DNA of 64,000 nt from Candidatus Falkowbacteria bacterium CG10_big_fil_rev_8_21_14_0_10_39_11 (GCA_002773615.1 PFAP01000011.1:8307-72306), one strand, 5' to 3'. Numbered from the stretch's first letter, positions 20,307 to 55,718 are shown. Notes: generated by a model from the letters alone, not told the origin. Program-made: numbers and translations.

Positions 20307-21002
20307 TTATAAATTCAATAACTTACCAGGGCCATTGGGATCATAACCATTTTTAACTTCATCACCATCGAGATATGTATCATTATCAGAATCACGATTC
20401 AATGGATCTGTATTATACACGCGCACCTCTTGAAAATCATCCAACCCATCTGAATCAGTGTCTGCTTTCAATGGATTTGTATTATACACAGCTTCTTCTC
20501 CATCCATCAAACCATCACCATCACTATCAATACTTTGATCTCCCAAAAGCTCTTGCGGATTCGATGAAGGTTCTGTAATGCTATTAGAGGGGTTTGATTC
20601 AATATCCTCTTTTTTTAGTAATCCATCCTCGGCACCCTCATTAGACAGCCCAAAGTTATCGATCACTTCCGTTGTATCACCAACAGAAGTATCAACTGAA
20701 TTAAAGCTATCACTATTATCCATAACCACTGGCCTCGCGTCTCGTCCAGTATACCAAAGTATTCCAAATACTACACCAACAATTACCACAATCGCCACCA
20801 CAAACAACAACACAATCTTGAGCACATTACCACCGCTTTTAACAGGCATCATAGCTGGCATAACCGCTGACTGCCCATCAGGCACCGGTTGTGGTTGTGG
20901 ACTTATCGGTTTTTCAGTTGCCATTGGCTTTTTTTGCTCTTCAGGCATTTGAGACTTCATTGATTTACTTTCTCCCTCTTGATATTTTGGATCATCAAAC
21001 AT
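20307..21002 (-). CDS. Membrane-anchored protein with four thrombospondin-type-3-like repeats
   Basis: DSDGDGLMDGEE, DTDSDGLDDFQE, DSDNDTYLDGDE; TM helix IVLLFVVAIVVIVGVVFGILWY. Confidence 0.55.
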   Translation of the reverse strand: MFDDPKYQEGESKSMKSQMPEEQKKPMATEKPISPQPQPVPDGQSAVMPAMMPVKSGGNVLKIVLLFVVAIVVIVGVVFGILWYTGRDARPVVMDNSDSFNSVDTSVGDTTEVIDNFGLSNEGAEDGLLKKEDIESNPSNSITEPSSNPQELLGDQSIDSDGDGLMDGEEAVYNTNPLKADTDSDGLDDFQEVRVYNTDPLNRDSDNDTYLDGDEVKNGYDPNGPGKLLNL

Positions 21003-21013
21003 AAGTTTATATA

Positions 21014-24000
21014 TTATTGAATTTCAAAATCCGTACTTGGTTTATTTCTAATTGAATAATAATTAAAGGTCTCAGCCTCTGTCCTATAAGAAATTCTAGA
21101 TCGCTTAAAGTCCCGGTTAAGATAATCATACAAATAACTATACAAATCAATCGGTGAAGATGTTGGAATCTGTATATCAACAATCAGACTATCAGAATTA
21201 TAACACGTATTTGGATCACTACCTCTAGCACAAACTGAACACAATTGATTGCCATTATCTTCAAAACATTGATGAGCTGGGATCAAACACTTCTTACCAT
21301 TATCTCCACAGGCCTCTCCGGTGAATGAGCTATTGGAACTTGGTTCATAACGAGCAATCTTATTGATCGGATCAACCGGTAATCTTGTCCCCAAATCATT
21401 GGCTAGGGTTGACTGCCAACTGGGCCAGGTAGAAGATGCAACATTCCGAATATACGAACCACTTTCAACGGTCGGTAAAGTCGTGTAACGATCATAGTAC
21501 GCCTGTAAAGATCTCTTTATATCCGTAATATCATTTATTCTCTGAATATCCCTTCTGATTGCAAATTGTACATCAGAATCTGTCACATTAATATTAAACA
21601 TCATCGAATCAATCATCTGAGCAAACATATCAATCGTACGACTATTGGCACCCAAATTATAGCCCAAAACAAAGATATAATTCCGCATCTCGCCACCAGT
21701 CAAATTACCAGCCGAGATATATACCGTATTTCCATCCTTAATCCCCTTATAACATACTTCTTGCCCAAATTTTGTATCAAGGCCACAATACACATTCAAA
21801 TCAGAACTGGATTGTCCAGCTTGAGGCACCTGATTTTTATACCATTCACGAACAGACAAATTATCAGGATTATCATAAATTCGCAGTGAAATCACATCAT
21901 CAACAAAGTCATTTGTATTCACCTCATTCACAATATCATCTGATCTGATCATCAAATATTGTTTTTGTAATGTGTCAACATCAGCTCCCAACTGTGACTC
22001 TACTACCCGAAGTAGTGGTAAATCATCCATTTTATTATTTACTTGTCCATTATCACGACAATATCGCAAATGAATATTTCGACCATCATTTCCATCATCC
22101 CACCCAATACTGGCACTATCCGCTGGCACTCTCCAGGGATTTTCACAAACATATGCACTGACTTGGCCTGATCCGACTAAAGTCGCTCCAATTTCACCAA
22201 AATAATCATCATCTATAATTGCTGCTTCAGCTGAAATTTCCGTATTTCCATTTTTATTATTAGCCATAGCCGCATCCCAAGAACCTGGAAGCTCTGTAAT
22301 ATCAACAATATCCCTATCTCCACTTTCCCAACTTGACCAATCCCAATCATACCGGCCAGCAAAAGGCTGAATTATTGTATTGCCCGACTTGGCCAGATGT
22401 GCAACTTCCCAAACCTCATCCCGCTCAGAAACTTGTTTCATCGCTGGAGAAATACCAACAGAATCAAAATGGCAATAATCTGATCCAACATTAAACCTGA
22501 AATTTTGATCTGGAATCAACAATTGACAATTATTTTCAATATTTTTAAGTCGGATCTCATAATGAGCAACCTTAAGAACGTCATTGGTTGTTATTTCAAT
22601 TTGACTAACATTTCTACCTCCCACATCCAGTACTCTTGATGTAATACTATAATTATCTGACTCTTCGAGACACCATTCAGCCGCCCGAGCGTCACGTCCG
22701 AATAATTTATTTAAATAATTCCAAATTTTCATCCCAACCTGAACTGGAGCACTACCACAACTATCAGCCTGATATCGCAATTCAATCAATTGATTCAAAT
22801 TTACTCCCGGTTCATGAAGCTGCTCCATCAATAAATCATACTGAACCACGATCACCGCATTCGGACATGTTTGAGATCCATCTTCACTGGTCATATCTAT
22901 CAAAGAAGGACTAATCAACTCTGCTCTTGCCGGATTGTTCGGATCACAAGATGGTGGTGGCGGTCCACCCAAACCAGAATAAACGTATGTAAGCAAACTA
23001 TCTTCAGACAAACTCTCTCCCACATCACCACTTTCTTCTAAATATGAAACCGTATTTTCCAACGTACCACGAATATTGACCGTTTGTCTGGTCGCACCAT
23101 CTGGCAAATAACCCAAAACCGTCACCAATGAATATGGTGCCCCATAAGACTCAAAACCGCCCCCAGACTGATCCAATTCACAAACCGGATCTTCGCCTGG
23201 CTCCACTTGTCCATTGGCACAAAAGGCAGCATTAGCCACGTTTGAGCCTCCATTCAAGCAACCATTGGTACACCAATCCGGAATTCTACAAACACAACTA
23301 TCCGTTCCGAATTCACAGACCTGTCCTTCATTATCAGTACAAACCGCTTCACACTCTTCAGTATAATTATTATAAGTTTCTAATTGTCCATTACCACAAC
23401 AATTTTCCTGATTATCTTCATTACAACCATCAAAATTTTTAAGTACACATTTATTTGAACAAAATTGGTCTTCATATGATTGGCAAACACAATTTTGATC
23501 TCCTGGCTGACAAGAGGCAAAAGAAATATTACCGTCAGAATTACGTTGCAAACTACCGTCCGCCGCTCGCACTGGAACTCGACAATTAACCGCCACCGGT
23601 TCACACTCTTCACCATTTTCGACCTGTCCATTACCACAAATCGATCCTATATATTCCGAACTTCCTTTATATAAACAATTATTATCTAGTCCGAACTGAC
23701 GATTTATTGCCGCTGAACCAAAATCATCATCTTCACCCAACTCCACTTTTCCATTACCACATTCAAAACCGGCTGAATTTGATCCTTCATTCAAACATTG
23801 TTTACTGCAACCATCTTGATTATTTCCATTACCATCATCACAATCTTCGCCCGGATCGACAATCTTATTACCACAACAAGCAATTTCATTGCCGGCAAAG
23901 CAAATCTCTGTCCCCGCTCTGAGACATTGATCAGTACACGCCGCGCCACCATCACACTCTTCACCAGATTCAACAACATTATTGCCACAAACGGCCTGAT

Positions 24001-27000
24001 AACGAACAGAACCTTCACTTAGACAATTAGACGTACAAGAAACGGCTCGCTGTGGAGAGTATAATGTCTTTAACATTGCAATCAATTTATTATCTCGCTC
24101 CGCCCTAGCGTCAACCCCGACAAAATTTTGCGAATTCACATCCGTATAATATTGTACTTCACCCGTTGTCTCTTCCCAATCCCAATCATACTGTCTGGCA
24201 CTGAGGCGTTGACCTCCAGAACTACAAAGATCCGGTTCAGAATACGGCACAGCACTATAAAGTATCTGCTCACCAGCTACCGTCGACAAATATTCTCCCG
24301 GACTAACCGTCACTCGATCAGGCCGACAAAAACCTCCATCTTCTCGAGTTTTGAAGACAAAACTAAACGAATCAAAGGTCGATGCGCTGTTAACATTTCG
24401 ATCAGTCAAAACACAACTTTGACAATTATCCGGGAAAGTACAGCTACAACCATCATCTCCATATTCACAACTCTGACGCTCTACCAAACTGCAAACATCT
24501 TTACAAACCAAATCCTTTTCGCTTGGACATTCAGCGCCTGTCGAAGCCAAAGGCACACAGGTACAAGCCGGAGCACTTTCCTTGCATTGAGTTTCTGTTC
24601 CAGCACAATAAGTCAATTTAATACACTCTCCTTTATCTGGATCCGCATCAAAACAGGTTACATCTGGAACAAATTGAAACTTACCAGATTCTCGACACGT
24701 ACAATCAGGTCCACTTTCTGTACAAGATTTTTGAGGGTCTTCTTCACAGGATCTTTGTGGTTGACAATCACAGCCAGCGTTATTATCTGTACAATATTCA
24801 GTAGTATTTTCTTGACAAACTTTTGGTTCAACACAAGTACAATCCAGAGAGTCAGCCGTACATTTTTGAGTTACATCTTCCAAGCAATATGAAGCACACT
24901 GCGGAGAATCACACTCTCTCGGTTCTCCACACTGACATGATGAAGACAATATATTTGGTTTATTTTTATTATCATTAAAATAATCATTACACACTTCGAG
25001 TGCAGAAACCCCTACACTACCAACGAAATCCACCTTCCCGGCTTTTGAACAACTTTCAACCTCACATTGCTCTTGCAATTGAGCCGACCCTAAATAAGTA
25101 TCCAAATTACCATCACCACAACAACCGGTAACGCCATCTTTACAAGCTGTAAAACCAACCAATCGACAATCATTGGAACAAAATTTGTTATTAGCCAGAG
25201 AACAGACACAATTATCCTCGCCTGAAATACATGTTTCGTTTGTTTTTTCATTCAAACATATCGCTTCGCATTGCTCTCCAGCATCAGATTCAATCACACC
25301 ATTACCACAAGTCCCAATTTGTGATCGAGTATTAAAATTCAAGCTGGTCAATTCTTTTGCACTGACATTTGTTACATCACCACGAATAACCAATCGATAA
25401 TATTTGGCCGGATCCAACACAGGATTAGGGTAAATACGCAATCGATTACAGACTTCACCATAATCAGCCACCATAGATACACCGGTTGTTGAGTCACAAT
25501 CGATTTCTCCGGGCTGGAAGTTTGCCAACTTATTTTCTTTCCCCGCAATCGACAAGCAATCACGACTTTCACACTCATACAAGCCAACAGATCCTGGATT
25601 ATTCTTCAAATAATCAGCGGGAATATAACTATTAAACATAGCCCCAAGCTCAGCGTTTACACAAGCGCCTTCACAATCCGGCCAATAATCAATTACTTTG
25701 GGGTCTGCCAATGAGATCGACAATCTAGCCTCATCCTGAAATGATTGAGCCCCAACCAAACCAGAAACTTGAATTTCTCCATCATCTCCCGGCGGTGTTT
25801 CAATCACCTCAGCATCTGGATTAACAACAAAATAGGCTGTATCTTTTCTAGATCCAGACACAAACAATCGATTGATTCTATCACCATATCGAGCCACCAG
25901 CCAATTCCAATTTTCATCAGAAACATCTATAATTCCACAATTATTCGCCTGACCGGAGACCATATATTTTTCTTGATCAACCACACTATTCAAGACACCT
26001 TCACTTGGATTCACCACCACAGAATCAATTGTACAGTCTGTGGCCGCTGTTTTAAAATTCCAAACATAATCATTTAATAATTCTTGAACATCATCGCCAG
26101 GGTCAGGCGCATTTCGGACACCAGCTTTCACAATCACCCGATACCAGGTATTCGGTACCAGATCATAATTAAGTAAATTGACTTGAGTCACTACATTATT
26201 ATCATAAGTTGAAGTTAAAACTTCATTCAATAAAATCCGACCGCTTGCATCACGTCCAGTAGCCACAAAATTATAATCTGTAGTCAAACAGTTACTACTA
26301 TCACAAAGCTGCAAATTACATTCACTTCCAGACTCACTACAACGTCTGATTTCCACTCGATCACCATCAATAAACGACTCTGAATCCATTTCCATATTAA
26401 AAGTAAAGCTGGCCAACCCGTTTGGACAAGCCGTCTGAGTATTGTTACGTGGAGATGGTGATTCATCAAAACCGCCAAGACTACATTCTCGATTAATCAC
26501 TTTAGGAATTTTAGGAATATTACCAGTACTAAAATACCAACCGTACTCACACGTAGTTGCTTGAGCTTCACACAGTTCAGCCGCGCTACAATAAGAATTT
26601 TGACAACAAACCTCACCCGAGCCACAACTATCAACCGTACATCGGCCGACATTAAATTGAACCGGATTACTATCGATACCACCTTGTTCAATCACCAACT
26701 CGCCACTTCTAGCATCCGGCGGAACAGATACCCCAGAAATTTGCGTACTGGTCCATTCAGCAGATTGTAAATTAAATCCCTCAACTATTGATGGCACACC
26801 AGGCGCAGCCGAAGCAAATTTGACCTTACCGGGTGTATTGCCAAATCCAACACCCTGAATAGTAATACTCGTCCCCGGAGGTCCATTGTCTGGAGTTATT
26901 GAACAAATACCAGGAGTCAATGCAAGATTATTATCAACTGAATAGGGTACCGAAACACTACCCTCGCTGTTTGCAATTTCTAAATCATAAGACCCTGTAA

Positions 27001-29080
27001 CCAAATCTGGAATGGTTACTTGAATACTGGTATTTGACCAATTATTAGCACAAGAAGTTAAAGCCGGAGTCCGAACGTTATCTCGAATAAATGTCACCGT
27101 ACCACTAGCACCAAAATTACTACCCTTAATCGTAATAATTTGTCCCTTAGGCGCAGTTTGCGGCAAAACTGACTGAATCACAATCGAACTATCACTTTCC
27201 CCGACCACAAAATTCACTGGATTGCTATAAAAATCATCCCGACCAACTTGAACGGTTTTGTTTCCTGACGATATAAACGGCACTTGAACTTCACGTATCA
27301 CATCATCTGACCATATTCCAGTCAGCAATGCATCACCATTAAAGTAAATACTACCATCTGCTCCAAAATGTCTTCCAGTCAAAAGAAGACGATCTCCGGG
27401 AGCTCCATTATTTTCTCGAGTTTCTTCATTCACCACCGAACACAAAGCGATTCTATTATTTCCACTTTCAGTAATCACCAAATCATTCTTCCAACCGGGT
27501 GCATTTGGATCAGCCGTATTGTGCCAATTACCTCTATTATTAAAAATTTGTATTGGACCAGTAGCAACATTTGGTACAGACACCACCACCTGTCGATCAC
27601 TCCAACTATCACGACCACAAACCGGAGCCGCTTCAACCCCATTGATTAAAACTTTTGCTTCTTGAGCAAAAACCCCAAAGTTTTTTCCATAAATAGTGAT
27701 AAAACCACTCGTCGGTGATTCAGCCGGCACTACATTGGTAATCAAAGGATATGGCCACAACGAACAGACAGACGAACACTGCTCAACTCCATCAACCGTT
27801 GAACAGTTACTCGGAGTACAAGTATAAGTACAATCATCCCCCGTACATTCAGAACAATTATCAACCTCACACTCAGGCAAAGAACAATCAAACTCACCAC
27901 CATCATTAAAACAACTATTGGAAGCCACCAAATATCGTCCAGCTGCGGTTGATTCATTATTACTAACATCACTCACCTTCACGGTTCCAGTGTGCCAACC
28001 CAAATCAAAACCGATAGTGGATGCATTCAAAACTGAACTATATGATAATGGATTTTCATCTTCAAAAACCACCTGCTGACACAAAACCCCTTGTCCGGTT
28101 TGAGCTGTCGGACAAAGTTGCAAGCTAGCCAAACCACTGGCGTCGGCCGCTGTTATCGGAAAATCCTCTTGGGCTCCAACTCGAACTTGCTGTGGGCTGG
28201 GAATAACCGATACTGTTGGCGCCAACAAATCACAACTATTTGTAGTCGTAAATTCTACTTGTCGACAATAACCCTGCAACCTATTTGGACATGCCACCAC
28301 ACTACCATTTTGATCTTGTAATTCTAATACTTTAATTCGATATGTTTTTTCTCCCTGAAAACAACTTGTCGCTTCACATCCAACTGGACATTCACCATTT
28401 GAAACAAAAGTCACCTTTCTATCACTTAAATCATAAGAACCCACCACCTCAACTTCTGACTCTACGTCACCGTCTTTTACAACCTCATACACTTTAATGT
28501 TATCTTTGGCATTTTGATATTCATTAGTCGGTAATGGCGTTCGACCATTCGGGAACGTAACCTGGACCACTGCATTAACCGGAGTATTAGCTCCACGAGG
28601 AGCAATACCAACGGAAAACCCTGTCACACCACCACCGCCACCGCCACCATCACCACCACCACCACCGCCACCCTCGGTGGTTGAAACCACTCCAGTCGCT
28701 TCACTAAGTCGATTAATTACATAACTGGTAATAGAAAATGCTGACATAATAATCACCATGCCAATAATACCATTGATAATCCATTTTTTAGCCTTCTCAA
28801 CTGACGTTTCAGCTCCACCACTAGTCATGTACAAAAATCCACCGTACAACACAATAGCCAAAGAAACCACTCCTAAAAATCCCAAAAATATTCTCAAAAT
28901 TCTACCGATAATTATTCTCGGATCCTCATTACCCAAAACGGTCGCCGACCCAACAGCCTCAAGCCCCACCCCAACATCATTTGACTGTTGAGCATGCAAT
29001 AATTCTGGAAGGACAAAAAGACCACCCATCACAATGAAGAGCACAATCAACACTCCAATTATTTTATTTTTATGTTTCAT
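21014..29080 (-). CDS. Giant (2688 aa) cell-surface protein: N-terminal T4SS-pilin-like (VirB2/TrbC-like) membrane domain, Gly-rich linker, IPT/TIG-like repeats, multiple Myxococcus-type Cys-rich repeats
   Basis: N-terminus LGNEDPRIIIGRILRIFLGFLGVVSLAIVLYGGFLYMTSGGAETSVEKAKKWIINGIIGMVIIMSAFSITSYVINRL; GGGGGGGDGGGGGGG linker. IPT/TIG-like strands (ITIKGSNFGASGTVTF, ITIQGVGFGNTPGKVKF). CGNGxxExGEECDxG repeats (CGNGVIESDAGEQCE, CGNGQVENGEECE, CGNKIVDPGEDCDDGNGNNQDGCSKQC). Confidence 0.7.
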   Translation of the reverse strand: MKHKNKIIGVLIVLFIVMGGLFVLPELLHAQQSNDVGVGLEAVGSATVLGNEDPRIIIGRILRIFLGFLGVVSLAIVLYGGFLYMTSGGAETSVEKAKKWIINGIIGMVIIMSAFSITSYVINRLSEATGVVSTTEGGGGGGGDGGGGGGGVTGFSVGIAPRGANTPVNAVVQVTFPNGRTPLPTNEYQNAKDNIKVYEVVKDGDVESEVEVVGSYDLSDRKVTFVSNGECPVGCEATSCFQGEKTYRIKVLELQDQNGSVVACPNRLQGYCRQVEFTTTNSCDLLAPTVSVIPSPQQVRVGAQEDFPITAADASGLASLQLCPTAQTGQGVLCQQVVFEDENPLSYSSVLNASTIGFDLGWHTGTVKVSDVSNNESTAAGRYLVASNSCFNDGGEFDCSLPECEVDNCSECTGDDCTYTCTPSNCSTVDGVEQCSSVCSLWPYPLITNVVPAESPTSGFITIYGKNFGVFAQEAKVLINGVEAAPVCGRDSWSDRQVVVSVPNVATGPIQIFNNRGNWHNTADPNAPGWKNDLVITESGNNRIALCSVVNEETRENNGAPGDRLLLTGRHFGADGSIYFNGDALLTGIWSDDVIREVQVPFISSGNKTVQVGRDDFYSNPVNFVVGESDSSIVIQSVLPQTAPKGQIITIKGSNFGASGTVTFIRDNVRTPALTSCANNWSNTSIQVTIPDLVTGSYDLEIANSEGSVSVPYSVDNNLALTPGICSITPDNGPPGTSITIQGVGFGNTPGKVKFASAAPGVPSIVEGFNLQSAEWTSTQISGVSVPPDARSGELVIEQGGIDSNPVQFNVGRCTVDSCGSGEVCCQNSYCSAAELCEAQATTCEYGWYFSTGNIPKIPKVINRECSLGGFDESPSPRNNTQTACPNGLASFTFNMEMDSESFIDGDRVEIRRCSESGSECNLQLCDSSNCLTTDYNFVATGRDASGRILLNEVLTSTYDNNVVTQVNLLNYDLVPNTWYRVIVKAGVRNAPDPGDDVQELLNDYVWNFKTAATDCTIDSVVVNPSEGVLNSVVDQEKYMVSGQANNCGIIDVSDENWNWLVARYGDRINRLFVSGSRKDTAYFVVNPDAEVIETPPGDDGEIQVSGLVGAQSFQDEARLSISLADPKVIDYWPDCEGACVNAELGAMFNSYIPADYLKNNPGSVGLYECESRDCLSIAGKENKLANFQPGEIDCDSTTGVSMVADYGEVCNRLRIYPNPVLDPAKYYRLVIRGDVTNVSAKELTSLNFNTRSQIGTCGNGVIESDAGEQCEAICLNEKTNETCISGEDNCVCSLANNKFCSNDCRLVGFTACKDGVTGCCGDGNLDTYLGSAQLQEQCEVESCSKAGKVDFVGSVGVSALEVCNDYFNDNKNKPNILSSSCQCGEPRECDSPQCASYCLEDVTQKCTADSLDCTCVEPKVCQENTTEYCTDNNAGCDCQPQRSCEEDPQKSCTESGPDCTCRESGKFQFVPDVTCFDADPDKGECIKLTYCAGTETQCKESAPACTCVPLASTGAECPSEKDLVCKDVCSLVERQSCEYGDDGCSCTFPDNCQSCVLTDRNVNSASTFDSFSFVFKTREDGGFCRPDRVTVSPGEYLSTVAGEQILYSAVPYSEPDLCSSGGQRLSARQYDWDWEETTGEVQYYTDVNSQNFVGVDARAERDNKLIAMLKTLYSPQRAVSCTSNCLSEGSVRYQAVCGNNVVESGEECDGGAACTDQCLRAGTEICFAGNEIACCGNKIVDPGEDCDDGNGNNQDGCSKQCLNEGSNSAGFECGNGKVELGEDDDFGSAAINRQFGLDNNCLYKGSSEYIGSICGNGQVENGEECEPVAVNCRVPVRAADGSLQRNSDGNISFASCQPGDQNCVCQSYEDQFCSNKCVLKNFDGCNEDNQENCCGNGQLETYNNYTEECEAVCTDNEGQVCEFGTDSCVCRIPDWCTNGCLNGGSNVANAAFCANGQVEPGEDPVCELDQSGGGFESYGAPYSLVTVLGYLPDGATRQTVNIRGTLENTVSYLEESGDVGESLSEDSLLTYVYSGLGGPPPPSCDPNNPARAELISPSLIDMTSEDGSQTCPNAVIVVQYDLLMEQLHEPGVNLNQLIELRYQADSCGSAPVQVGMKIWNYLNKLFGRDARAAEWCLEESDNYSITSRVLDVGGRNVSQIEITTNDVLKVAHYEIRLKNIENNCQLLIPDQNFRFNVGSDYCHFDSVGISPAMKQVSERDEVWEVAHLAKSGNTIIQPFAGRYDWDWSSWESGDRDIVDITELPGSWDAAMANNKNGNTEISAEAAIIDDDYFGEIGATLVGSGQVSAYVCENPWRVPADSASIGWDDGNDGRNIHLRYCRDNGQVNNKMDDLPLLRVVESQLGADVDTLQKQYLMIRSDDIVNEVNTNDFVDDVISLRIYDNPDNLSVREWYKNQVPQAGQSSSDLNVYCGLDTKFGQEVCYKGIKDGNTVYISAGNLTGGEMRNYIFVLGYNLGANSRTIDMFAQMIDSMMFNINVTDSDVQFAIRRDIQRINDITDIKRSLQAYYDRYTTLPTVESGSYIRNVASSTWPSWQSTLANDLGTRLPVDPINKIARYEPSSNSSFTGEACGDNGKKCLIPAHQCFEDNGNQLCSVCARGSDPNTCYNSDSLIVDIQIPTSSPIDLYSYLYDYLNRDFKRSRISYRTEAETFNYYSIRNKPSTDFEIQ

Positions 29081-29114: not shown

Positions 29115-31223
29115 CTAATAAGGACACATTGCTCCTGTTTGAACCTGCATACCACCAACTCCAGCATCATCTACCGTACCACAACAAGCTCGACCAGGCA
29201 CCAATGGATCACAAGCCGGTCCCTTACAAGGATTAAAGCAATTCCCCTGCATATCCTGGACTCCTGAAGTAATTTTAGGAAAGAAAAATGGCACATCAAG
29301 CGGATTTTTTGCCAACGAAAATGGTCCATGATTTATCATCACTTTTCTATCATTTGTCAAACAAAACTTCGAACCATCAGGTGATGTTCCTGGGTCACAA
29401 AACAAACTACCCGTGTACCAACCACTCCACATATCCGAGACTATTATCATATTAGAATTCGTTGTAGTTGCTGGATCTATCGCTTCACTATAAGTCGCCG
29501 ACACCACACTATCCGGCCTCACACCATCACTTTTATCAGCTGCATTCGCTGGTGTGACGGCTGTAATATTTGGCGGAATCAAATCCAATTGAGCTGAAGT
29601 CAAAAACGTCCAATCAAAACTATCGATTGCCTGAGTTTCTGTTTGCCCATTTCCGCGACCAATACGTCCGTTGGTATCCAAACCATTCAAAGCTGAATCC
29701 ACAATACCACCAACCGGGAATCGAACTGAAGTTGGACCAGCCGGTCCGTTTGGATTGGCCGCATCATAATTCACCAAGTTACTTTTTGGCACAGACCGCA
29801 CCAAGGTTTTTATCTTGCTATTCGCTGGCAAACAAGTAACAATATCACCACAAGAATTAAACAAATCAGCTCCGGTACCACAGTTACCATTGGCCTTGAA
29901 GATTAATGATCTATACTGGTTTATTCCAGCCACCACATCACCCATGATTACCGAGCCATCAGCATCATTAGTCACCAAGAACTCGGCATTACCATAATCA
30001 CCAGAATTAGTTGATATCATTTTCAAAAATATCGGTGGAATCACCGCCTCACTAAAATCAACTCGAATACGACTATTTCTCCAATGAGTTTCAGCATTAG
30101 CCGCCCCCACCTCGAATTCAACTGGTTGCCCACTCGAATCAAGCGTCACCGGATAAACACCAGTCACAAATGGCGGAGTAGTATCGATCACCGTATTTGT
30201 AGTAAAATACCAGGGATACTTCGGAGATTGTTGGCCGGTAAATACACCTGTATTTGTTTGATACTTTCTAATATTATTTGTTAACAATGAAAAATAAGTC
30301 ACATCTTCAGCAATTCCGCCCAAATGTTCTGTAGTACTATTCCCATATGGATTAACTACAATGGTTTTGAAATCAGGCGTGATATATACCTCTCCAGGAA
30401 CAAAATCAAACGGGGCAGCAGGCTCATCACCTCGCCATTCATTACAAACAGATTTATTACCCCTTTGAGCTGGATCATAACTCTGCGGAGTCACCACACC
30501 TTCAGGATAAATAGATTCACAAGCTTCATATATTTTGATCGATTCAGTATCCAAATCTCCAGTACATAAACAATCACTATCCGGTTTTACATCCGAACAA
30601 TCACCGCCAGCCGCATCTTGACAAATAAAGTTACCATTAGCCGCGATCACGCTTGACGGAACAATCGGTTCTTTAAAAGTCACCATAATCACAGTATTCC
30701 GTGGGACAGTCGAAGCAATGGCCGGATAATGGTCCTGAATTACTCGACCCAAAATACCAGAACTCAAACCTGGTGAAGTATATTCAGACTGAGAACCTCC
30801 ACCCGTTCCGCCACCAATAATAGCTTGTAATCGACTGATAATAAAACTGGTAATGGCAAAAGCTGACATCATAATCACCAAACCAATCGTAGCGTTGATA
30901 ATTGTTTTTTTTGCTTTAGTCGTCTTTGATTCATCACCACCGCTGGTCATGTACAAAAATCCAGCGTAAATCATTAGCGAGACAAAAATCGCACCAACAA
31001 ACCCAAAGAATATCCGGATTATTCTGGCAATAATAATTCTAGGGTCTTCATTTCCCAAGCCAGTAGCACCGCCGACAGCGTCAGTACCGTTAATTACTCC
31101 CGGAGCTTGCGCCGCAACCTGAAAAACACTCAGCAGCAAAATCGCAGTTAGTATAAAGGCAAAAAAAATCGATAAATAAGCTACTCGATTTGTTCGTTTT
31201 ATATATTTAAAATTCAAAAACAT
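29115..31223 (-). CDS. 702-aa surface protein with the same N-terminal T4SS-pilin-like domain followed by a Gly-rich linker and a large extracellular region
   Basis: LGNEDPRIIIARIIRIFFGFVGAIFVSLMIYAGFLYMTSGGDESKTTKAKKTIINATIGLVIMMSAFAITSFIISRL aligns motif-for-motif with the giant protein N-terminus. Confidence 0.65.
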   Translation of the reverse strand: MFLNFKYIKRTNRVAYLSIFFAFILTAILLLSVFQVAAQAPGVINGTDAVGGATGLGNEDPRIIIARIIRIFFGFVGAIFVSLMIYAGFLYMTSGGDESKTTKAKKTIINATIGLVIMMSAFAITSFIISRLQAIIGGGTGGGSQSEYTSPGLSSGILGRVIQDHYPAIASTVPRNTVIMVTFKEPIVPSSVIAANGNFICQDAAGGDCSDVKPDSDCLCTGDLDTESIKIYEACESIYPEGVVTPQSYDPAQRGNKSVCNEWRGDEPAAPFDFVPGEVYITPDFKTIVVNPYGNSTTEHLGGIAEDVTYFSLLTNNIRKYQTNTGVFTGQQSPKYPWYFTTNTVIDTTPPFVTGVYPVTLDSSGQPVEFEVGAANAETHWRNSRIRVDFSEAVIPPIFLKMISTNSGDYGNAEFLVTNDADGSVIMGDVVAGINQYRSLIFKANGNCGTGADLFNSCGDIVTCLPANSKIKTLVRSVPKSNLVNYDAANPNGPAGPTSVRFPVGGIVDSALNGLDTNGRIGRGNGQTETQAIDSFDWTFLTSAQLDLIPPNITAVTPANAADKSDGVRPDSVVSATYSEAIDPATTTNSNMIIVSDMWSGWYTGSLFCDPGTSPDGSKFCLTNDRKVMINHGPFSLAKNPLDVPFFFPKITSGVQDMQGNCFNPCKGPACDPLVPGRACCGTVDDAGVGGMQVQTGAMCPY

Positions 31224-33421: not shown

Positions 33422-34162
33422 TTAATTACCATTATTAAATTGCTCATAATCCACACCGTTAAAAATCTTAGCTCGATCAAGAGGCCAACCCCTCAACCAA
33501 ACCTTACCCACAATCAACCCGCGATTCACCGGACCAAAAATTCTCGAATCCAAACTATGTTCTCGATTGTCACCAAGTACATAATACTCCCCTTCCCCAA
33601 GCTCCCATCGTTTGTCACCTCTAGTTTTCACTCCATTATCAAGATAATCATATTCATCAAGCAAATATTTCCGATTGCCATCCTCAGCATAAATAAACAC
33701 AAATCCATCTTTCACCTCGACAGTTTCTCCTGGACGACCAATAATTCTTTTAATGAAAAATTGAGTGGGATCCTTTGGATATCTAAAAACAACAATATCA
33801 CCACGATCCGGAGCGGAAAGACGATAGGATATTTCATCAATAATCAAATATTCTTGGTCATAAAAACTGGGTTCCATTGAAGCACCTTGAACATAAAAAG
33901 GCTGAATCAAAAAGTAACGGACTGGAATTATGATAGCCAAAGCTACAGCTACAACCTTGACTAAATCCCAAAAAAAATACCAGACACGTTTTCCCATAGA
34001 AATGTTATCGTGTTGTTGACTAAAAGTGTATTTGTCGATATTTTTACTAAGCATTTCCTGAATTATACTATATAAAAAGTAAAAAATCAAGCCCCTAAGC
34101 ACTGCGATTATAACACAAAGATGATTGTCATGCAAACATCTGATATAACTTGCTAATATCAT
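33422..34162 (-). CDS. lepB: Signal peptidase I
   Basis: SPase I boxes: SMEPSF (Ser), RGDIVVF, KRIIGRPGETV (Lys), YYVLGDNREHSLDSRIFGPV. The true start is probably an internal Met just before the TM helix. Confidence 0.85.
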   Translation of the reverse strand: MILASYIRCLHDNHLCVIIAVLRGLIFYFLYSIIQEMLSKNIDKYTFSQQHDNISMGKRVWYFFWDLVKVVAVALAIIIPVRYFLIQPFYVQGASMEPSFYDQEYLIIDEISYRLSAPDRGDIVVFRYPKDPTQFFIKRIIGRPGETVEVKDGFVFIYAEDGNRKYLLDEYDYLDNGVKTRGDKRWELGEGEYYVLGDNREHSLDSRIFGPVNRGLIVGKVWLRGWPLDRAKIFNGVDYEQFNNGN

Positions 34163-46216: not shown

Positions 46217-46521
46217 TTGACATTGAATTAGGGTTTACCTAACTCTGGCGTAGAAATCAAGGAAACAACTCCAATCACAAAACTGCAAGTTTCGTGTCTC
46301 CCAAATCCCACAAAAAAAACATAACACTTTTGATTCAAACAATCAAGGTCTATTCACCATAAAAACGATACATCAAAGTATCGCTTTCTGGGTGAGAATC
46401 AATCAACCATAATTTGTTTATCAAAATCTTTGACTTTACAAATCATTAAAAAACTGCTAAAATATAAGGCTATTGAAAATCCTCCCAGATATCCTATAAT
46501 AAGAGTATCAGCACTAATATT

Positions 46522-48153
46522 ATGGACCAGAAAATTCAAAAATTGATTGATAATCTCAACCGTGTTCACGGTCACGAAATTAATGAAAAAATCATTCAGA
46601 CCGTTTTTAATTTGACTAAAGATATTGATGATGAACTGACAAAAAATCAAGCCTTCAACAACGCCTACAACATCAGCCTCAAACACGTTCCAGCCGAAAT
46701 TGTAGCGCTTGAATATTTATACTGTTTCAAATCTCACATTCCAAACCTGGAGAATATTACTAAGAAACAAACATCTTCAAATTTTTACAAACTGTTCAAA
46801 GCTCACGATCTTGCTAATATTCATTTAGATGTCAAACTTCACAACCGAAGTCTTTTAGAACATACAAAAAACACCGTTCATCATTTAGCTGAGCTCAATC
46901 CAGACTTTCATTCCCTTTACGCCGCTTATCTCAAACATCTTCCGGAATACTCACCGATTAGCATAAAGGATCTTCAAAAAATATTCGGCACCGATGTCGT
47001 CAATATTATTCAAGCCACAAATCGTCTAAAAACAATTTGCCGTCCGTCTGACACCAATAACCATGAATCGCTCCAACAACTTATCCTGACCAGCTCAAAA
47101 GATACTCGAGTTATTATTTTAAAAATGTGTTCCCTCATTGACTTGCTCAAGAACATTGATCAAATAAAAGAAAAACACCGCATCAGAACCGCCACCGAAG
47201 CCATGCATATTTATGCTCCCATTGCAGACATTCTCGGTATCTGGCGTCTCAAATGGCAACTGGAAGATTATTCATTCCGGTTTCTTCAACCAGAAGAGTA
47301 CCAAAATATCGAAAGAAAATTTCATGTTGATGAAAAGAAAAACCGAGAAAAATATGTCGCTAAAACTATAAAAATATTGACCAATAAAGCCCAAAAGAAC
47401 AACCTTCACTGTGATGTGAGTGGTCGCTTCAAACATTTTTACAGCATTTATCAAAAAATGAATGAAAAACAAAAAAACTTCAACGAAATATATGATGTAT
47501 TTGCGCTTAGAATTATTGTGCCGACAATTGATGACTGCTACAAAGCATTAGAATTGATTCATTCCATCTGGCACCCGGTACCAAATAGAATCAAAGACTA
47601 TATCAACGCGCCCAAAAAAAACCAATACCGCAGTTTACATACCACCGTCTATGGCCTAAATAATCGTCCGACTGAATTTCAAATACGAACCGCTGACATG
47701 GACCATGAAGCTAGGTATGGTAAATCATCACATTGGTTTTACAAAAACAATCAAAAAAATATCCCTGACTGGGCGTTGAAAATCATCAACTTCAATCGCT
47801 CAACCAACCACAATCAAGACTGGATTCAGATTAACACTGAAGTTTTATTTGATAAAATTTTCACCTATACACCCAAAGGAGACGTTATTTCTCTCCCCAA
47901 AGGAGCCACTGTCATTGACTTTGCCTATCACATTCATTCACAAGTCGGCAACAGTTGTCATTCTGCCCGAGTCAATAGCCAAACAGTCCAATTGGATCAT
48001 GAGCTACAAAATGAAGACATCGTTGAGATCATCAGCAATCCAAAACAATTTCTACCTAAAGAAGAGTGGTTAAAAATAATAACCACACCAATCGCAGAAA
48101 AAAAGATCCTTCAAGCTCTCGAATCTGATCCTAGACATGAAATATATCACTAA
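46522..48153 (+). CDS. RelA/SpoT-homolog 1: degenerate HD region + (p)ppGpp synthetase domain + TGS domain; no ACT/RRM tail
   Basis: Synthetase core RFKHFYSIYQKM ... YDVFALRIIV ... YRSLHTTVYG; TGS FTYTPKGDVISLPKGATVIDFAYHIHSQVG. No canonical HDxxED hydrolase motif seen. Confidence 0.8.
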   Translation: MDQKIQKLIDNLNRVHGHEINEKIIQTVFNLTKDIDDELTKNQAFNNAYNISLKHVPAEIVALEYLYCFKSHIPNLENITKKQTSSNFYKLFKAHDLANIHLDVKLHNRSLLEHTKNTVHHLAELNPDFHSLYAAYLKHLPEYSPISIKDLQKIFGTDVVNIIQATNRLKTICRPSDTNNHESLQQLILTSSKDTRVIILKMCSLIDLLKNIDQIKEKHRIRTATEAMHIYAPIADILGIWRLKWQLEDYSFRFLQPEEYQNIERKFHVDEKKNREKYVAKTIKILTNKAQKNNLHCDVSGRFKHFYSIYQKMNEKQKNFNEIYDVFALRIIVPTIDDCYKALELIHSIWHPVPNRIKDYINAPKKNQYRSLHTTVYGLNNRPTEFQIRTADMDHEARYGKSSHWFYKNNQKNIPDWALKIINFNRSTNHNQDWIQINTEVLFDKIFTYTPKGDVISLPKGATVIDFAYHIHSQVGNSCHSARVNSQTVQLDHELQNEDIVEIISNPKQFLPKEEWLKIITTPIAEKKILQALESDPRHEIYH

Positions 48154-48171
48154 ATTTGGTATAATAAATCT

Positions 48172-49635
48172 ATGACTATTCGCAAACTCATCAGCACAAT
48201 CAAGGGCCAATATCCTCAATCTGACATTGAAAGAGTCGAGGCTGCTTTTGACTTTGCCAACAAGGCTCATGCCGGACAAAAACGAGCTACCGGAGCTAAT
48301 TACATTGAACATTCTTTGGCCACAGCTCAAACGCTCGCCGAATTAAAACTACCACCAAACATGATCATTGCTGGTCTATTGCATGATGTACCAGAAGATA
48401 CCGAACATACACTAGCAGAAATCAAAGAAAAATTTGGCACCGATGTTGCCGGTATTGTTGAAGGCATTACCAAATTGAGTAACATCAAATATCTCGGCAT
48501 GGATCGCTACGTTGAAAATTTACGAAAAATGTTTGTTGCGATGGCCGAAGATATTAGAGTCATCATTGTCAAATTTGCTGACCGTTTGCACAACTTAAGC
48601 ACTCTCTACGCTTTACCAGCCAATAAACAAAAAAGAATTGCCATGGAAACTCTGGAGATATACGCTCCCATTGCCAACCGTCTCGGTATTGGTGAACTTC
48701 AATCTCGTCTCGAAGACACCGCCTTCAAATATGCCTATCCCGAAGAATATATCTGGGTTGAACAACTGATCAAACAAAACGCCCCGATCAAACAAAAAAC
48801 CTTAAACCTAATGATCAAACAACTCACCGATGAGCTTGGAACCGAAAAAATCAACTATGTCGAAATTTACGGCCGATCAAAACACTATTACAGCCTCTAT
48901 CGCAAGCTACTACGCTTCAATCGAGATATCACAAAAATCTACGACATCGTAGCGATTCGAGTGATTCTAAAAAATATCGCTGATTGTTATGCCACTCTCG
49001 GAATCATTCACAGTATATGGAAGCCGGTCAAAGGTAGAATTAAAGACTATATTGCCCAACCAAAACCCAATGGTTACCAATCTCTCCATACCACCGTATT
49101 TGGCGCCAATCAAGAAATCGTCGAGCTCCAACTCAGAAGTCAAACCATGGATGAACAAGCCGAATTTGGTATTGCTTCTCATTGGAATTACAAAGAATCA
49201 CCTCAAAATAAACAAGAAAAAAGTAAAAAAGAGGTTGCTTGGGTTCAAGACTTGGCTCGCTGGCTCAAAGATGTCCGGGACAATGAAAACTTTCTTGAAG
49301 GGGCCAAGATTGACGTTTTCCAAAATCGAATTTTCGTATTTACCCCACAAGGTGACGTCATCGACCTCCCGGACGGAGCGACGCCAGTTGACTTTGCTTA
49401 TCATATTCACACCGATATTGGTGACAAAACTGAACGAGCCATAGTCAACAACACTCAGATTAGCCTAGATACAAAATTAAAAAATGGTGACGTGGTAGAA
49501 ATTGTCACCGACAAAAACCGCAAAGGTCCCAATCCTGAATGGCTAAAATTTGTCACCACCCGAACCGCCAGACAGCATATTGCTATTTTCAAAAATCAAA
49601 GCTGGAAAAATCTTATATCAAAATTTAAAAAATAA
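48172..49635 (+). CDS. RelA/SpoT-homolog 2: intact HD hydrolase + synthetase + TGS (bifunctional-type), truncated after TGS
   Basis: AGLLHDVPEDTEHT (HD motif), RSKHYYSLYRKL ... YDIVAIRVIL ... YQSLHTTVFG, TGS VFTPQGDVIDLPDGATPVDFAYHIHTDIG. Confidence 0.85.
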   Translation: MTIRKLISTIKGQYPQSDIERVEAAFDFANKAHAGQKRATGANYIEHSLATAQTLAELKLPPNMIIAGLLHDVPEDTEHTLAEIKEKFGTDVAGIVEGITKLSNIKYLGMDRYVENLRKMFVAMAEDIRVIIVKFADRLHNLSTLYALPANKQKRIAMETLEIYAPIANRLGIGELQSRLEDTAFKYAYPEEYIWVEQLIKQNAPIKQKTLNLMIKQLTDELGTEKINYVEIYGRSKHYYSLYRKLLRFNRDITKIYDIVAIRVILKNIADCYATLGIIHSIWKPVKGRIKDYIAQPKPNGYQSLHTTVFGANQEIVELQLRSQTMDEQAEFGIASHWNYKESPQNKQEKSKKEVAWVQDLARWLKDVRDNENFLEGAKIDVFQNRIFVFTPQGDVIDLPDGATPVDFAYHIHTDIGDKTERAIVNNTQISLDTKLKNGDVVEIVTDKNRKGPNPEWLKFVTTRTARQHIAIFKNQSWKNLISKFKK

Positions 49636-49637
49636 AT

Positions 49638-50231
49638 ATGAAAAAAATTTCCTTTATTACTTTAATGTTTTCATGCTTTTTTGTTTTCATGATTTTTACT
49701 CCCAACGCCCAAGCAATAATTGCGCCCACCGGCGCAGAGTGTACTGCCAACAATAAATGCGATACCTCTATTGACTTTTGTCCTACCACCACTCCTAGAG
49801 TCTGTACAACCAAAATAGCCACTGGCTCAACCAACTGTACAACCAATAACATGTGCCAATCAAACTATTGTAACACCACCAACTCTACCTGCGAGGTACA
49901 ACAACCGCCCATCCTCCCCCCTTCACAGCCATCAGGACTGACTCCAACCAATGCTAGTGGCACCACCACCTCTTTACCCAACCCACTTGGCACAACATCC
50001 ATCAACCTACTGCTTGGCCGTATCATCCGCTATGTTGTCGGTCTATCTGGTGCTCTAGCCCTAGTTATTTTTATTTATGGCGGCCTGATGTGGATTTTTT
50101 CTCAAGGCAAAGCCGACATGATTAACAAGGGGAAAAAAGCTATCTCCTATTCTGTTATCGGCCTGGTAATAATTTTCACCAGCTATATTATCATCCGATT
50201 CATCATCACCGCCCTGACAAAATTTACCTAA
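49638..50231 (+). CDS. Secreted Cys-rich protein with a C-terminal T4SS-pilin-like domain (third copy of the domain in this window)
   Basis: Signal peptide, 14-Cys N-domain, Pro/Thr linker, then LLGRIIRYVVGLSGALALVIFIYGGLMWIFSQGKADMINKGKKAISYSVIGLVIIFTSYIIIRFI, which aligns with the N-termini of the 2688-aa and 702-aa proteins. Confidence 0.65.
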   Translation: MKKISFITLMFSCFFVFMIFTPNAQAIIAPTGAECTANNKCDTSIDFCPTTTPRVCTTKIATGSTNCTTNNMCQSNYCNTTNSTCEVQQPPILPPSQPSGLTPTNASGTTTSLPNPLGTTSINLLLGRIIRYVVGLSGALALVIFIYGGLMWIFSQGKADMINKGKKAISYSVIGLVIIFTSYIIIRFIITALTKFT

Positions 50232-51571: not shown

Positions 51572-51601
51572 TTGACAACATATAAAAAAATATGATATAA
51601 T
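51572..51601 (+). promoter_or_regulatory. Sigma70-like promoter (TTGACA-18-TATAAT)
   Basis: Consensus hexamers 38 bp upstream of the next start codon. Confidence 0.45.
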
Positions 51602-51638
51602 GTTATGTAATCAAAATCCTGAATACAAGGAGAGAAAC

Positions 51639-52304
51639 ATGACATATCTGATTCTCGTTCTACTGTTTGCCGCTACCGCTCTTTTCATGCTTGGAATTCA
51701 CTGGGGTCTATCACTTGGAGTTGTCGTCATCGGCATCTTCGTAATCGGTTATCTAATCCGTCGAAAGAATGCAACTACCACCCCAGCCACCACAACGACC
51801 ACCACCCCAAAGAAAAAACCGGAATTCCACTGGAGTCTCTACATCTTCTCTCTGATCATCATCGGGTTGTTGGCTTGGGTCATCGTTGGTGGCGCCCCAT
51901 ACGCCGCCAGCTGTGCTAGTGGCTGTATTAGCGGCTGCAACAAAAGCTGGAAAGACTTCAACATCGCCAGCACCCAAGCTCGACCAGAAAATACCGTCAG
52001 CAAACCTGTCTGGTGGGCTGGACCGGTCAATCCCGGCATGATCGTGGAGATCGGCGAGATCACTTACAACAGCACACCACGAATGAACAACTGCATCGCA
52101 ATCTACATCAACTACTCGGCTGTTCAATGCCGTCTTCTCGATCCCACCACCGAAGGAACCTCAAAGTGGGAAGAAGTGAGCATGGACAACAATGGCCAAG
52201 AATTTTGCGCCAGTCCAGTCACATCTGGCATCCTACAGTTGACCGTCCCACCTGGAGGCGTTCAAGAATACGTCACCATACTTCACTACAAATCAAGACA
52301 ATAA
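51639..52304 (+). CDS. Membrane protein with poly-Thr linker and Cys-rich extracytoplasmic domain; GC-elevated gene
   Basis: Start at MTYLILVL (SD AAGGAGAG); two TM helices flank TTPATTTTTTPKKKP, then a Cys-rich domain (CASGCISGCNKSW). Codon usage is visibly more GC-rich than neighbours. Confidence 0.45.
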   Translation: MTYLILVLLFAATALFMLGIHWGLSLGVVVIGIFVIGYLIRRKNATTTPATTTTTTPKKKPEFHWSLYIFSLIIIGLLAWVIVGGAPYAASCASGCISGCNKSWKDFNIASTQARPENTVSKPVWWAGPVNPGMIVEIGEITYNSTPRMNNCIAIYINYSAVQCRLLDPTTEGTSKWEEVSMDNNGQEFCASPVTSGILQLTVPPGGVQEYVTILHYKSRQ

Positions 52305-55264: not shown

Positions 55265-55351
55265 AGCCGAAGTGGCGGAACTGGTAGACGCGCTGGACTC
55301 AAAATCCAGTGATGGCGACATCGTGAGAGTTCGAGTCTCTCCTTCGGCACC
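55265..55351 (+). tRNA. tRNA-Leu (anticodon CAA), long variable arm, encoded CCA
   Basis: GCCGAAG acceptor, anticodon loop CTCAAAA, 87 nt, TPsiC loop GTTCGAGTC, 3' CTTCGGCACCA. Confidence 0.85.
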
Positions 55352-55447
55352 AAATTTCAATACAAAGATACAAATGCATCACTTTTAATTTAATCCTTGC
55401 CAAATTATTAATTATCATGTATGATATTAGCGATGTCAAAAATTAAC

Positions 55448-55521
55448 GCGGAGTAGAGCAGTGGCAGCTCGCCAGGCCCATAACCTGGAGGTCGGAGGTT
55501 CGAATCCTCCCTCCGCAACCA
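55448..55521 (+). tRNA. tRNA with CAT anticodon (Met; initiator vs elongator vs Ile-lysidine not resolved), encoded CCA
   Basis: Anticodon stem CCAGG/CCTGG with loop CCCATAA; GTTCGAATC T-loop. If the gene begins 1 nt upstream, a C1-A72 mismatch (initiator-like) results. Confidence 0.8.
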
Positions 55522-55641
55522 AATCATAAAATTCTAAATTCTAAGCTCTAAACTCTAAAAATATCTCCCAGTTTTAGTCTTTAGAATTTCGAGTTTAGTC
55601 TTTTTTTGATGATTAATAGTTCAATAGTGATTCAATTTTAT

Positions 55642-55718
55642 GGCAGGGTAGCTCAGTTGGTCAGAGCGAGGGAATCATAACCCCTAGGTCGGCGGTTCAA
55701 CCCCGCCCCCTGTCACCA
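55642..55718 (+). tRNA. Second tRNA with CAT anticodon (GGG/CCC-rich anticodon stem), encoded CCA
   Basis: GGCAGGG acceptor, D-arm GCTCAGTTGGTCAGAGC, loop ATCATAA, T-loop GGTTCAACC, 3' CTGTCACCA. Confidence 0.8.

Follow-up and report, generated by a model that had tools for sequence, protein, structure and literature searches.

The 64,000-nucleotide stretch of Candidatus Falkowbacteria bacterium CG10_big_fil_rev_8_21_14_0_10_39_11 analyzed here (GCA_002773615.1, PFAP01000011.1:8307-72306; hereafter the window) comes from an ultra-small groundwater bacterium and carries a gene at positions 49638–50231 whose 197-residue product belongs, judged by its sequence, to the VirB2/TrbC-like pilins of Patescibacteria (family PF18895). 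A small cysteine-rich module and a linker separate its signal peptide from its pilin domain. We assign a probability of about 0.5 to the explanation that the protein is a passenger-bearing VirB2-like pilin, which would be polymerized by a type IV secretion system (T4SS) and would display the module for host recognition or adhesion. The window encodes two further PF18895 domains, located at the N-termini of proteins of 702 and 2688 residues (Table 1).

The three PF18895 domains of the window are homologous

The 197-, 702- and 2688-residue proteins score 38.4, 34.9 and 28.2 bits against PF18895 (T4SS_pilin), respectively, each above the gathering score of 26.6. In the 197-residue protein, residues 119–189 cover profile positions 2–71 of 71 with an E-value of 1.3e-9. 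In an alignment of the three domains, 22 columns are invariant, among them ones occupied by Gly, Lys, Arg, Tyr and Ser. Local alignment of the domain of the 197-residue protein with the two fusion proteins gave scores of 16.6 and 19.9 standard deviations over 2000 composition-preserving shuffles, compared with −0.3 for a control segment of the window rich in transmembrane (TM) residues. An earlier reading of this DNA, made from the sequence alone (the sequence-only reading), had proposed that the C-terminal segment of the 197-residue protein is homologous to the N-termini of the two larger proteins. It had asked whether Gly and charged positions are kept in all three domains, which is the case, and whether the similarity goes beyond generic TM composition, which the comparison with the control indicates. 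Approximately 60% of the C-terminal domain is hydrophobic, as would be expected if the similarity arose from TM composition in the absence of homology; this explanation is nevertheless refuted by the shuffle scores, by Pfam scores above the curated threshold in all three proteins and by the invariance of polar and Gly positions, and we consider its probability negligible. Identity is 62% between the two fusion domains and 32–35% between these and the domain of the 197-residue protein. A hidden Markov model built from the three domains found no fourth copy in a six-frame translation of the window. The term “pilin-like” could also be understood as denoting a type IV pilin with a class III signal peptide; this was discarded, as no such Pfam match was present and the domain is of the VirB2/TrbC type.

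Architecture of the 197-residue protein

The open reading frame (ORF) begins with the first ATG downstream of an in-frame stop, at position 49638. As noted previously, this codon lies just behind the stop of the second of two rel genes, which ends at 49635 and leaves a 2-nt spacer. The order of segments also agrees with the earlier description: a signal peptide is followed by a Cys-rich N-domain, a Pro/Thr linker and the C-terminal pilin domain. The signal peptide comprises a KK n-region (MKK), a hydrophobic core and the residues A-Q-A ahead of the predicted cut; by the AXA rule, cleavage of the precursor would occur between AQA and II. A composition script counted nine Cys residues, of which eight belong to the module and one to the signal peptide, correcting the 14 previously attributed to the N-domain. 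The same script identified 8 Pro and 11 Thr/Ser/Asn among the 30 residues of the linker (residues 89–118). The pilin domain forms a hairpin of two helices (residues 122–153 and 159–196) with a Lys-rich turn (K158, K164, K166 and K167), modeled by AlphaFold2 (AF2) with a predicted local distance difference test score (pLDDT) of about 87–92. Hydropathy and the AF2 model thus both show the arrangement in which a signal peptide leads to a pair of hydrophobic helices that are connected through a short basic turn and run to the C-terminus.

A protein identical to the ORF product (P0001) is encoded on six metagenome contigs. Among public collections, the exact sequence occurs only in JGI, Logan and ENA, without name or accession, while the neighboring 702-residue protein is deposited at NCBI as PIR94260.1; the 197-residue gene may be uncalled or differently called in the GenBank record.

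A variant member of the PF18895 family

With a profile of the pilin domain, 2759 proteins were retrieved at E ≤ 1e-3, and the 120 best matches are all PF18895 pilins of 109–154 residues, some of which are named “pilin” by NCBI. Among PDB sequences, a profile of the domain had 0 matches, and an NCBIfam scan of the protein returned no family. Typical stand-alone members (n = 121) have this same length range, a median domain start at residue 44 and a C-terminal tail of 0 residues. The 197-residue protein likewise lacks a C-terminal tail, but its domain starts at residue 112–119, and an insertion of about 90 residues separates the signal peptide from the NPLG motif. It therefore lies outside the size range of stand-alone pilins (about 110–150 residues, with ~15 residues from signal peptide to domain). 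Because of this insertion, we regard the protein as a variant and not, as first proposed, as the canonical stand-alone pilin layout.

The hairpin itself retains the family signature. Defining near-invariant positions as those at least 90% conserved in 127 PF18895 members yielded 20 positions, 19 of which are kept in the 197-residue protein, the sole change being W171 to Y. Conserved family residues include the NPLG motif, Y-G-G, W, the K-G of the loop, G175 and F/Y in helix 2; N115, P116 and L117, at the boundary of linker and domain, reach the same ≥ 90% threshold.

The cysteine-rich module resembles Dickkopf domains

The eight Cys of the module, at residues 35, 41, 48, 56, 67, 73, 78 and 85, follow the pattern C-x5-C-x6-C-x7-C-x2-K-x3-G-x3-C-x5-C-x-S-x2-C-x6-C. 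An ortholog of 264 residues (P0002, 59% identical) contains two modules, and all eight Cys align across the three. When the module profile was run against 1.84e9 representative proteins, only ten were found. Four of the ten are pilin fusions, namely P0001, P0002, P0126 (two modules) and P0131 (~4 modules). Most of the remaining matches are non-pilin proteins with repeats that score above the Pfam Dickkopf_N cut-off, so that the module also occurs outside pilins. P0127, P0128, P0131, P0132 and P0133, which match the module profile with E-values of 7e-6 to 6e-4, each score above the gathering threshold of PF04706 (Dickkopf_N).

Comparison of the Falkowbacteria modules with the repeats of the Dickkopf_N-passing proteins by hhalign gave a probability of 97.3%, a value to be read with the fact that this comparison set was picked with the query’s own profile and that Cys-rich repeats inflate such scores. 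Dickkopf 1, 2 and 4 were the only PDB sequences matched by the module profile (best E 0.0036). AF2 modeled the module with a pLDDT of 92.2 when given the module alignment. In a Foldseek search with this model, Dkk4-N, DKK1, colipase, MIT1 and knottins ranked on top, none of them significantly (E ≥ 0.33). The 197-residue protein has no match to PF04706 at E ≤ 1, and the ortholog reaches 10.8 bits (E 0.66), below the gathering score. Given that the window protein lacks a direct Dickkopf_N match, its module is termed “Dickkopf-like” here and is not assigned to that family.

The window gene and its ortholog (L001 10001-10795) differ by exactly one in-frame Cys module of 67 residues. The window module aligns to the head of ortholog module 1 and to the tail (TNSTCE) of ortholog module 2, which suggests that the number of modules in this pair changed by recombination between repeats. 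Module copy number (1, 2 or ~4 in orthologs and relatives) is a variable feature. The combination of a Dickkopf-like module with a pilin is rare, with four clusters among 1.84 billion representatives.

Evolution of passenger-bearing pilins

The pilin domain of the 197-residue protein is on average 48% identical to those of stand-alone pilins (maximum 57%) and 35% identical to those of the C-terminally extended class (maximum 44%). The 702- and 2688-residue domains group instead with 58 proteins of the pilin + Big_5 type, drawn from at least five lineages of the Candidate Phyla Radiation (CPR), and the pilin + Ig-like fusion family spans Falkow-, Buchanan-, Komeili-, Magasanik- and Uhrbacteria. 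From this grouping, which is based on an identity matrix and not on a phylogeny, the three copies in the window are best described as ancient paralogs and not as products of a recent intragenomic shuffle.

Passengers have also been added elsewhere in the family. P0003, P0005 and P0007 carry N-terminal Cys-rich inserts with other Cys patterns, and their nearest pilin-domain relatives are plain pilins; the domain of P0003 is 89% identical to that of the stand-alone P0011. On these comparisons, passenger gain by PF18895 pilins is a recurrent event. The domain shuffling suggested by the sequence-only reading consequently holds in the broad sense of repeated modular gain of passengers, and fails as a recent event within this genome.

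A model for passenger display and its alternatives

According to the model we favor, the precursor would be exported by the Sec pathway and cut after AQA by signal peptidase I, presumably the LepB encoded in the window (Table 1). The mature protein would form a membrane hairpin whose Lys-rich turn lies in the cytoplasm and whose termini both lie outside; a T4SS encoded elsewhere in the genome would then extract it and polymerize it into a pilus, as with other VirB2-type pilins. In the T-pilus (bioRxiv 10.1101/2022.09.25.509369) and the F-pilus (PMC6635492), the termini face the outside and the inter-helix loop, which binds phospholipid in both, faces the lumen. It is this topology that would direct the N-terminal module outward, onto the exterior of the filament or, before extraction of the pilin from the membrane, onto the cell surface. 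The same topology would also expose the Ig/TIG arrays that the 702- and 2688-residue paralogs carry at their C-termini. A rough volume calculation with T-pilus helical parameters indicated that a 62-residue module on every subunit fits a shell of ~20 Å, whereas passengers of 565 and 2558 residues need shells of ~100 Å and ~250 Å; for this reason, the 702- and 2688-residue proteins are more plausibly sparse, tip-located or cell-bound.

By analogy with these pili, we infer that PF18895 proteins would polymerize into a T4SS-dependent filament. VirB2-like pilins are widespread in Patescibacteria, whose T4SS loci carry them, and essential in Southlakia epibionticum, and the literature reports no PrgB-type adhesins detected in this phylum. 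The 197-residue protein would then likely help the episymbiont to recognize its host cell or adhere to it. A broader proposal is that patescibacterial T4SS pili are modular display scaffolds which carry passengers on either end of the pilin, such as 1 to ~4 small Dickkopf-like knobs at the N-terminus or Ig/TIG arrays of 0.5–2.5 thousand residues at the C-terminus, supply the “missing” T4SS adhesins and set host specificity, perhaps with the rel-rel-pilin operon co-regulated with (p)ppGpp metabolism; we put it forward as a doubtful, tentative extension.

Several observations weigh against the polymerizing, passenger-bearing pilin. Genes for T4SS machinery (such as VirB4, VirB6, VirD4, PrgI/VirB3 and trsD) are absent from the window among ORFs of at least 150 residues, and from the ~10 kb beyond its left end and the ortholog loci; the pilin gene itself sits among housekeeping genes behind the two rel genes. 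For comparison, published data place a pilin near virB4 in only 1135 of 1948 assemblies. The match to PF04956 (TrbC/VirB2; E 5.3e-5) reaches 23.8 bits, below the gathering score of 27.9. Many stand-alone relatives match both PF18895 and PF04956, and the hit indicates a resemblance at the superfamily level only. Foldseek returned no PDB structure at E < 1 for the full-length AF2 model, the best pilin in the list being the Aeropyrum pernix conjugation pilus (8dfu, rank 2, E 3.3), and the hairpin fold is too simple to discriminate. “Pilin” is used here as a name derived from homology, no PF18895 pilus having been visualized so far. In favor of the model, comparison with the ortholog shows purifying selection that is strongest on the hairpin: the pilin domain is the most conserved part of the protein (75% amino-acid identity, dN/dS, the ratio of nonsynonymous to synonymous rates, ~0.15) relative to the Cys module (59%, dN/dS ~0.29). 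Both ratios are rough, however, as synonymous sites are saturated (dS > 1).

A first alternative is that the PF18895 hairpin would be a mere two-helix membrane anchor that never polymerizes, with the module held on a Pro/Thr stalk and the 702- and 2688-residue proteins acting as further cell-bound adhesins. The lack of T4SS genes nearby, the similar position of the closest stand-alone relatives away from such genes and the lack of a visualized PF18895 filament all fit an anchor. So do the ~100 and ~250 Å shells, which suit a cell-bound or sparse role for the two large proteins, and VirB2 pilins form a membrane pool before assembly (PMC13463995). A single TM helix or a lipobox would, however, suffice for anchoring. 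A generic anchor would not need a hairpin that is the most constrained part of the protein and keeps 19 of the 20 near-invariant family residues, including Gly, Tyr, Trp, Lys and NPLG; this constraint argues for a function beyond anchoring, and we judge the anchor a serious possibility, though less probable than the polymerizing pilin.

The sequence-only reading had suggested that the 197-residue protein may be the major, shaft-forming pilin, with the two fusions as minor subunits displayed on its filament. It is indeed shorter than the other two PF18895 proteins of the window, and a homopolymer could sterically accommodate a 62-residue module on each subunit. However, it is not a plain pilin, since it carries a bulky passenger of its own; typical members have 109–154 residues, and genes for such pilins may exist elsewhere in the genome. 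Its domain falls in a different sub-clade from those of the fusions, and identities of 32–35% to them, against 62% between them, do not suggest co-assembly. A promoter-less third gene, 2 nt behind the gene of a regulatory enzyme, would moreover be unusual for a very highly expressed structural component. We found nothing to support the fusions being displayed on this protein and consider a shaft role improbable. Slightly less probable still is a pro-protein, in which removal of the module and linker at or near NPLG would release a small disulfide-rich factor and leave an ordinary mature pilin. NPLG lies exactly at the boundary of passenger and pilin and is highly conserved, and classical VirB2/TrbC pilins undergo extra processing. 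Yet the motif is equally conserved in plain pilins, which have nothing to remove, and is more simply explained as a helix N-cap or packing motif; nor is a dedicated protease gene adjacent. The passenger-bearing, T4SS-polymerized pilin thus remains the explanation we favor.

Genomic context

The two tandem rel genes upstream of the pilin gene encode proteins of 543 and 487 residues, the first with a weaker, partial match to the HD domain. In a second Falkowbacteria genome (GCA_003518055.1), the ortholog lies in the order topA, rel, rel, pilin (2-nt gap), Band_7 ... parB, parA. A second locus of that genome contains lepB, hisS, YqeY, a 705-residue pilin-Big_5 protein, a 2675-residue pilin-TIG protein and a TSP3 protein. 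Since both arrangements recur there, all three pilin-domain genes of the window are stable chromosomal residents. Promoter-like sites, which are consensus matches only, lie at 46435–46500 upstream of the rel pair, and a consensus scan found no terminator-like site between the second rel gene and the pilin gene. As the counts of promoter and terminator sites in the window are not above shuffled expectation, the operon structure draws mainly on the conserved 2-nt gap; the pilin gene is probably co-transcribed with the two rel genes. The absence of a Shine-Dalgarno sequence was dismissed as an argument against high expression, because the 702- and 2688-residue genes also lack an obvious one. The conservation of the rel-rel-pilin tandem in the second genome hints at a surface gene co-transcribed with genes of (p)ppGpp metabolism.

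PIR94260.1, from Candidatus Falkowbacteria bacterium CG10_big_fil_rev_8_21_14..., has the sequence of the 702-residue protein, which places the window in a genome bin of the Patescibacteria/CPR. The remainder of the window is occupied by housekeeping genes (rsmA, prfA, nrdDGR, ftsAZ, hisS, lepB, der, pth, dprA, topA, the two rel genes, a Band_7 protein gene, parAB, scpAB and IMPDH). One of the closest stand-alone relatives, P0042, belongs to a tandem PF18895 pair that is likewise surrounded by housekeeping genes (L009 9619-10345); it is followed by an integrase-like (rve) gene, and T4SS genes are absent within 10 kb.

Table 1 Features of the window, with positions counted from its first nucleotide.
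Feature	Position	Strand	Basis or remark
PF18895 pilin precursor gene, 197 aa, modular VirB2-like	49638..50231	+	Stop codon included; ORF list and Pfam
Predicted signal peptide, residues 1-26	49638..49715	+	Precedes 49716; hydropathy, sequence inspection, AF2 helix 4-20
8-Cys Dickkopf-like module (putative passenger or “head”), residues 27-88, 62 aa	49716..49901	+	Cys pattern, hhalign, AF2
Pro/Thr/Ser-rich linker, residues 89-118, 30 aa, ending in (L)PNPLG	49902..49991	+	Composition
T4SS_pilin (VirB2/TrbC-like) helical hairpin, residues 119-197	49992..50228	+	Pfam PF18895, AF2
PF18895 domain, residues 51-137, N-terminus of 702-aa pilin + Ig-like (Big_5) protein	30813..31073	-	Gene 29115..31223
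PF18895 domain, residues 44-130, N-terminus of 2688-aa pilin + TIG/Cys-repeat protein	28691..28951	-	Gene 21014..29080
Two tandem RelA/SpoT genes directly upstream of pilin gene	46522..49635	+	Pfam HD_4/RelA_SpoT/TGS
Signal peptidase I (LepB, Peptidase_S26)	33422..34162	-	Pfam PF10502, E 5e-44
TSP3-repeat small proteins and giant neighbor	20307-21002, 1067-1894, 2-1036	-	Pfam/context
tRNA gene cluster: one Leu(caa), two Met(cat)	55266-55718	+	

Beyond its pilin domain, the 2688-residue protein contains four TIG domains and long Cys-rich acidic repeats (TIGR02232 myxo_disulf_rpt, “CGNG..E.GEECD”), with a weak match to the choice-of-anchor Z repeat. Bacterial TSP3-repeat proteins (231 and 275 residues) adjoin giant surface proteins twice: one follows the 2688-residue gene and the other precedes a 3201-residue gene. 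The latter begins at about position 1036, continues past the left end of the window and is all that the ~10 kb recovered there contains; its product has a signal peptide, with neither a pilin domain nor a Pfam match. At the right end, a look-up of IMPDH yielded only a 10-kb contig that extends about 2.5 kb beyond the window, and the 240-residue ORF is not on record. Downstream of the pilin gene, a sigma-70-like promoter with a 12/12 match (51572–51601) overlaps the first ATG of a 234-residue ORF (within 51572–52304, plus strand), and because of this overlap the real start is probably ATG 51639. The predicted 234-residue protein combines two TM helices with a poly-Thr stretch and a C-terminal domain that contains Cys, and matches no family; its gene is kept beside the Band_7 gene in the ortholog locus.

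Significance

Patescibacteria/CPR account for much of bacterial diversity, and they live in attachment to host cells. In the one patescibacterial species tested, the T4SS and its VirB2-like pilins are essential, and no adhesin has been identified for that system. The curation of PF18895 and the presence of VirB2-like pilins in Patescibacteria are already established, while in the literature searched we found no description of PF18895 pilins with folded passengers at either terminus. If our explanation is true, natural passenger-carrying VirB2-type pilins would offer a simple answer to the missing T4SS adhesin, and proteins of this class would be, to our knowledge, the first natural passenger-bearing pilins of the conjugative type. 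The genetic system that now exists in Saccharibacteria makes the idea testable. The present analysis also provides a function-level annotation, as a modular T4SS-type pilin with a Dickkopf-like head, for a protein that is nameless in the public collections searched, and documents variation in module copy number between orthologs. The 197-residue gene is thus a lead, drawn from sequence comparison, on how CPR pili might carry adhesins.

Comparison with known systems

The Mbov_0395 pilin-like protein of Mycoplasma integrative and conjugative elements (NF045849) is likewise a small hairpin protein of the VirB2 type and belongs to a monoderm T4SS. The N-termini of the 702- and 2688-residue proteins match this family with E-values of 5.6e-8 and 2.9e-4 (32.4 and 20.4 bits, below the curated cut-off of 40), while the 197-residue protein has no match at E ≤ 0.01. 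The N-terminal module shares its Cys spacing with the Dickkopf N-terminal domain (PF04706) and its bacterial repeat versions. Animal DKK domains have 10 Cys, compared with 8 in the module, and no link to Wnt biology is implied. In overall design, the protein recalls FimH of type 1 pili and PilB of Streptococcus sanguinis, in which a receptor-binding module is joined through a linker to a pilin domain. This is an analogy of design only, as their folds and machines are unrelated: FimH depends on chaperone-usher donor-strand exchange and PilB on type IV pilus machinery.

Classical TrbC/VirB2/TraA pilins (PF04956) share with the 197-residue protein a Sec signal peptide and a two-helix hairpin with a basic luminal/cytoplasmic loop. 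Both of their termini lie on the exterior of the assembled pilus, which would allow passenger display at either end. They differ in having diderm hosts, and the 197-residue protein matches their family below its gathering score. Some are cyclized or acetylated, and we know of no natural passenger domain in any of them. A combination of hairpin and extracellular passenger is found in the pilin + Ig-like family (PF18895 + PF13205 Big_5, 540–1168 residues, including the 702-residue PIR94260.1). There, however, the passenger is large and C-terminal, as opposed to small and N-terminal in the 197-residue protein, and the pilin domains form a separate sub-clade with a mean identity of 35% to its domain.

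The closest counterparts are the patescibacterial VirB2-like pilins of Southlakia epibionticum and Nanosynbacter lyticus (Wang et al. 2023, PMC10633639; Quinonero-Coronel et al. 2025, PMC12102498), which have the same PF18895 domain and belong to the same phylum. As in the 197-residue protein, their signal peptide is followed by NPLG, helix 1, a basic turn and helix 2, where the chain ends without a tail. Their genes often occur in arrays near virB4, whereas the 197-residue gene is solitary behind two rel genes, and its product differs from theirs in the 62-residue Dickkopf-like module and the 30-residue linker that follow the signal peptide.

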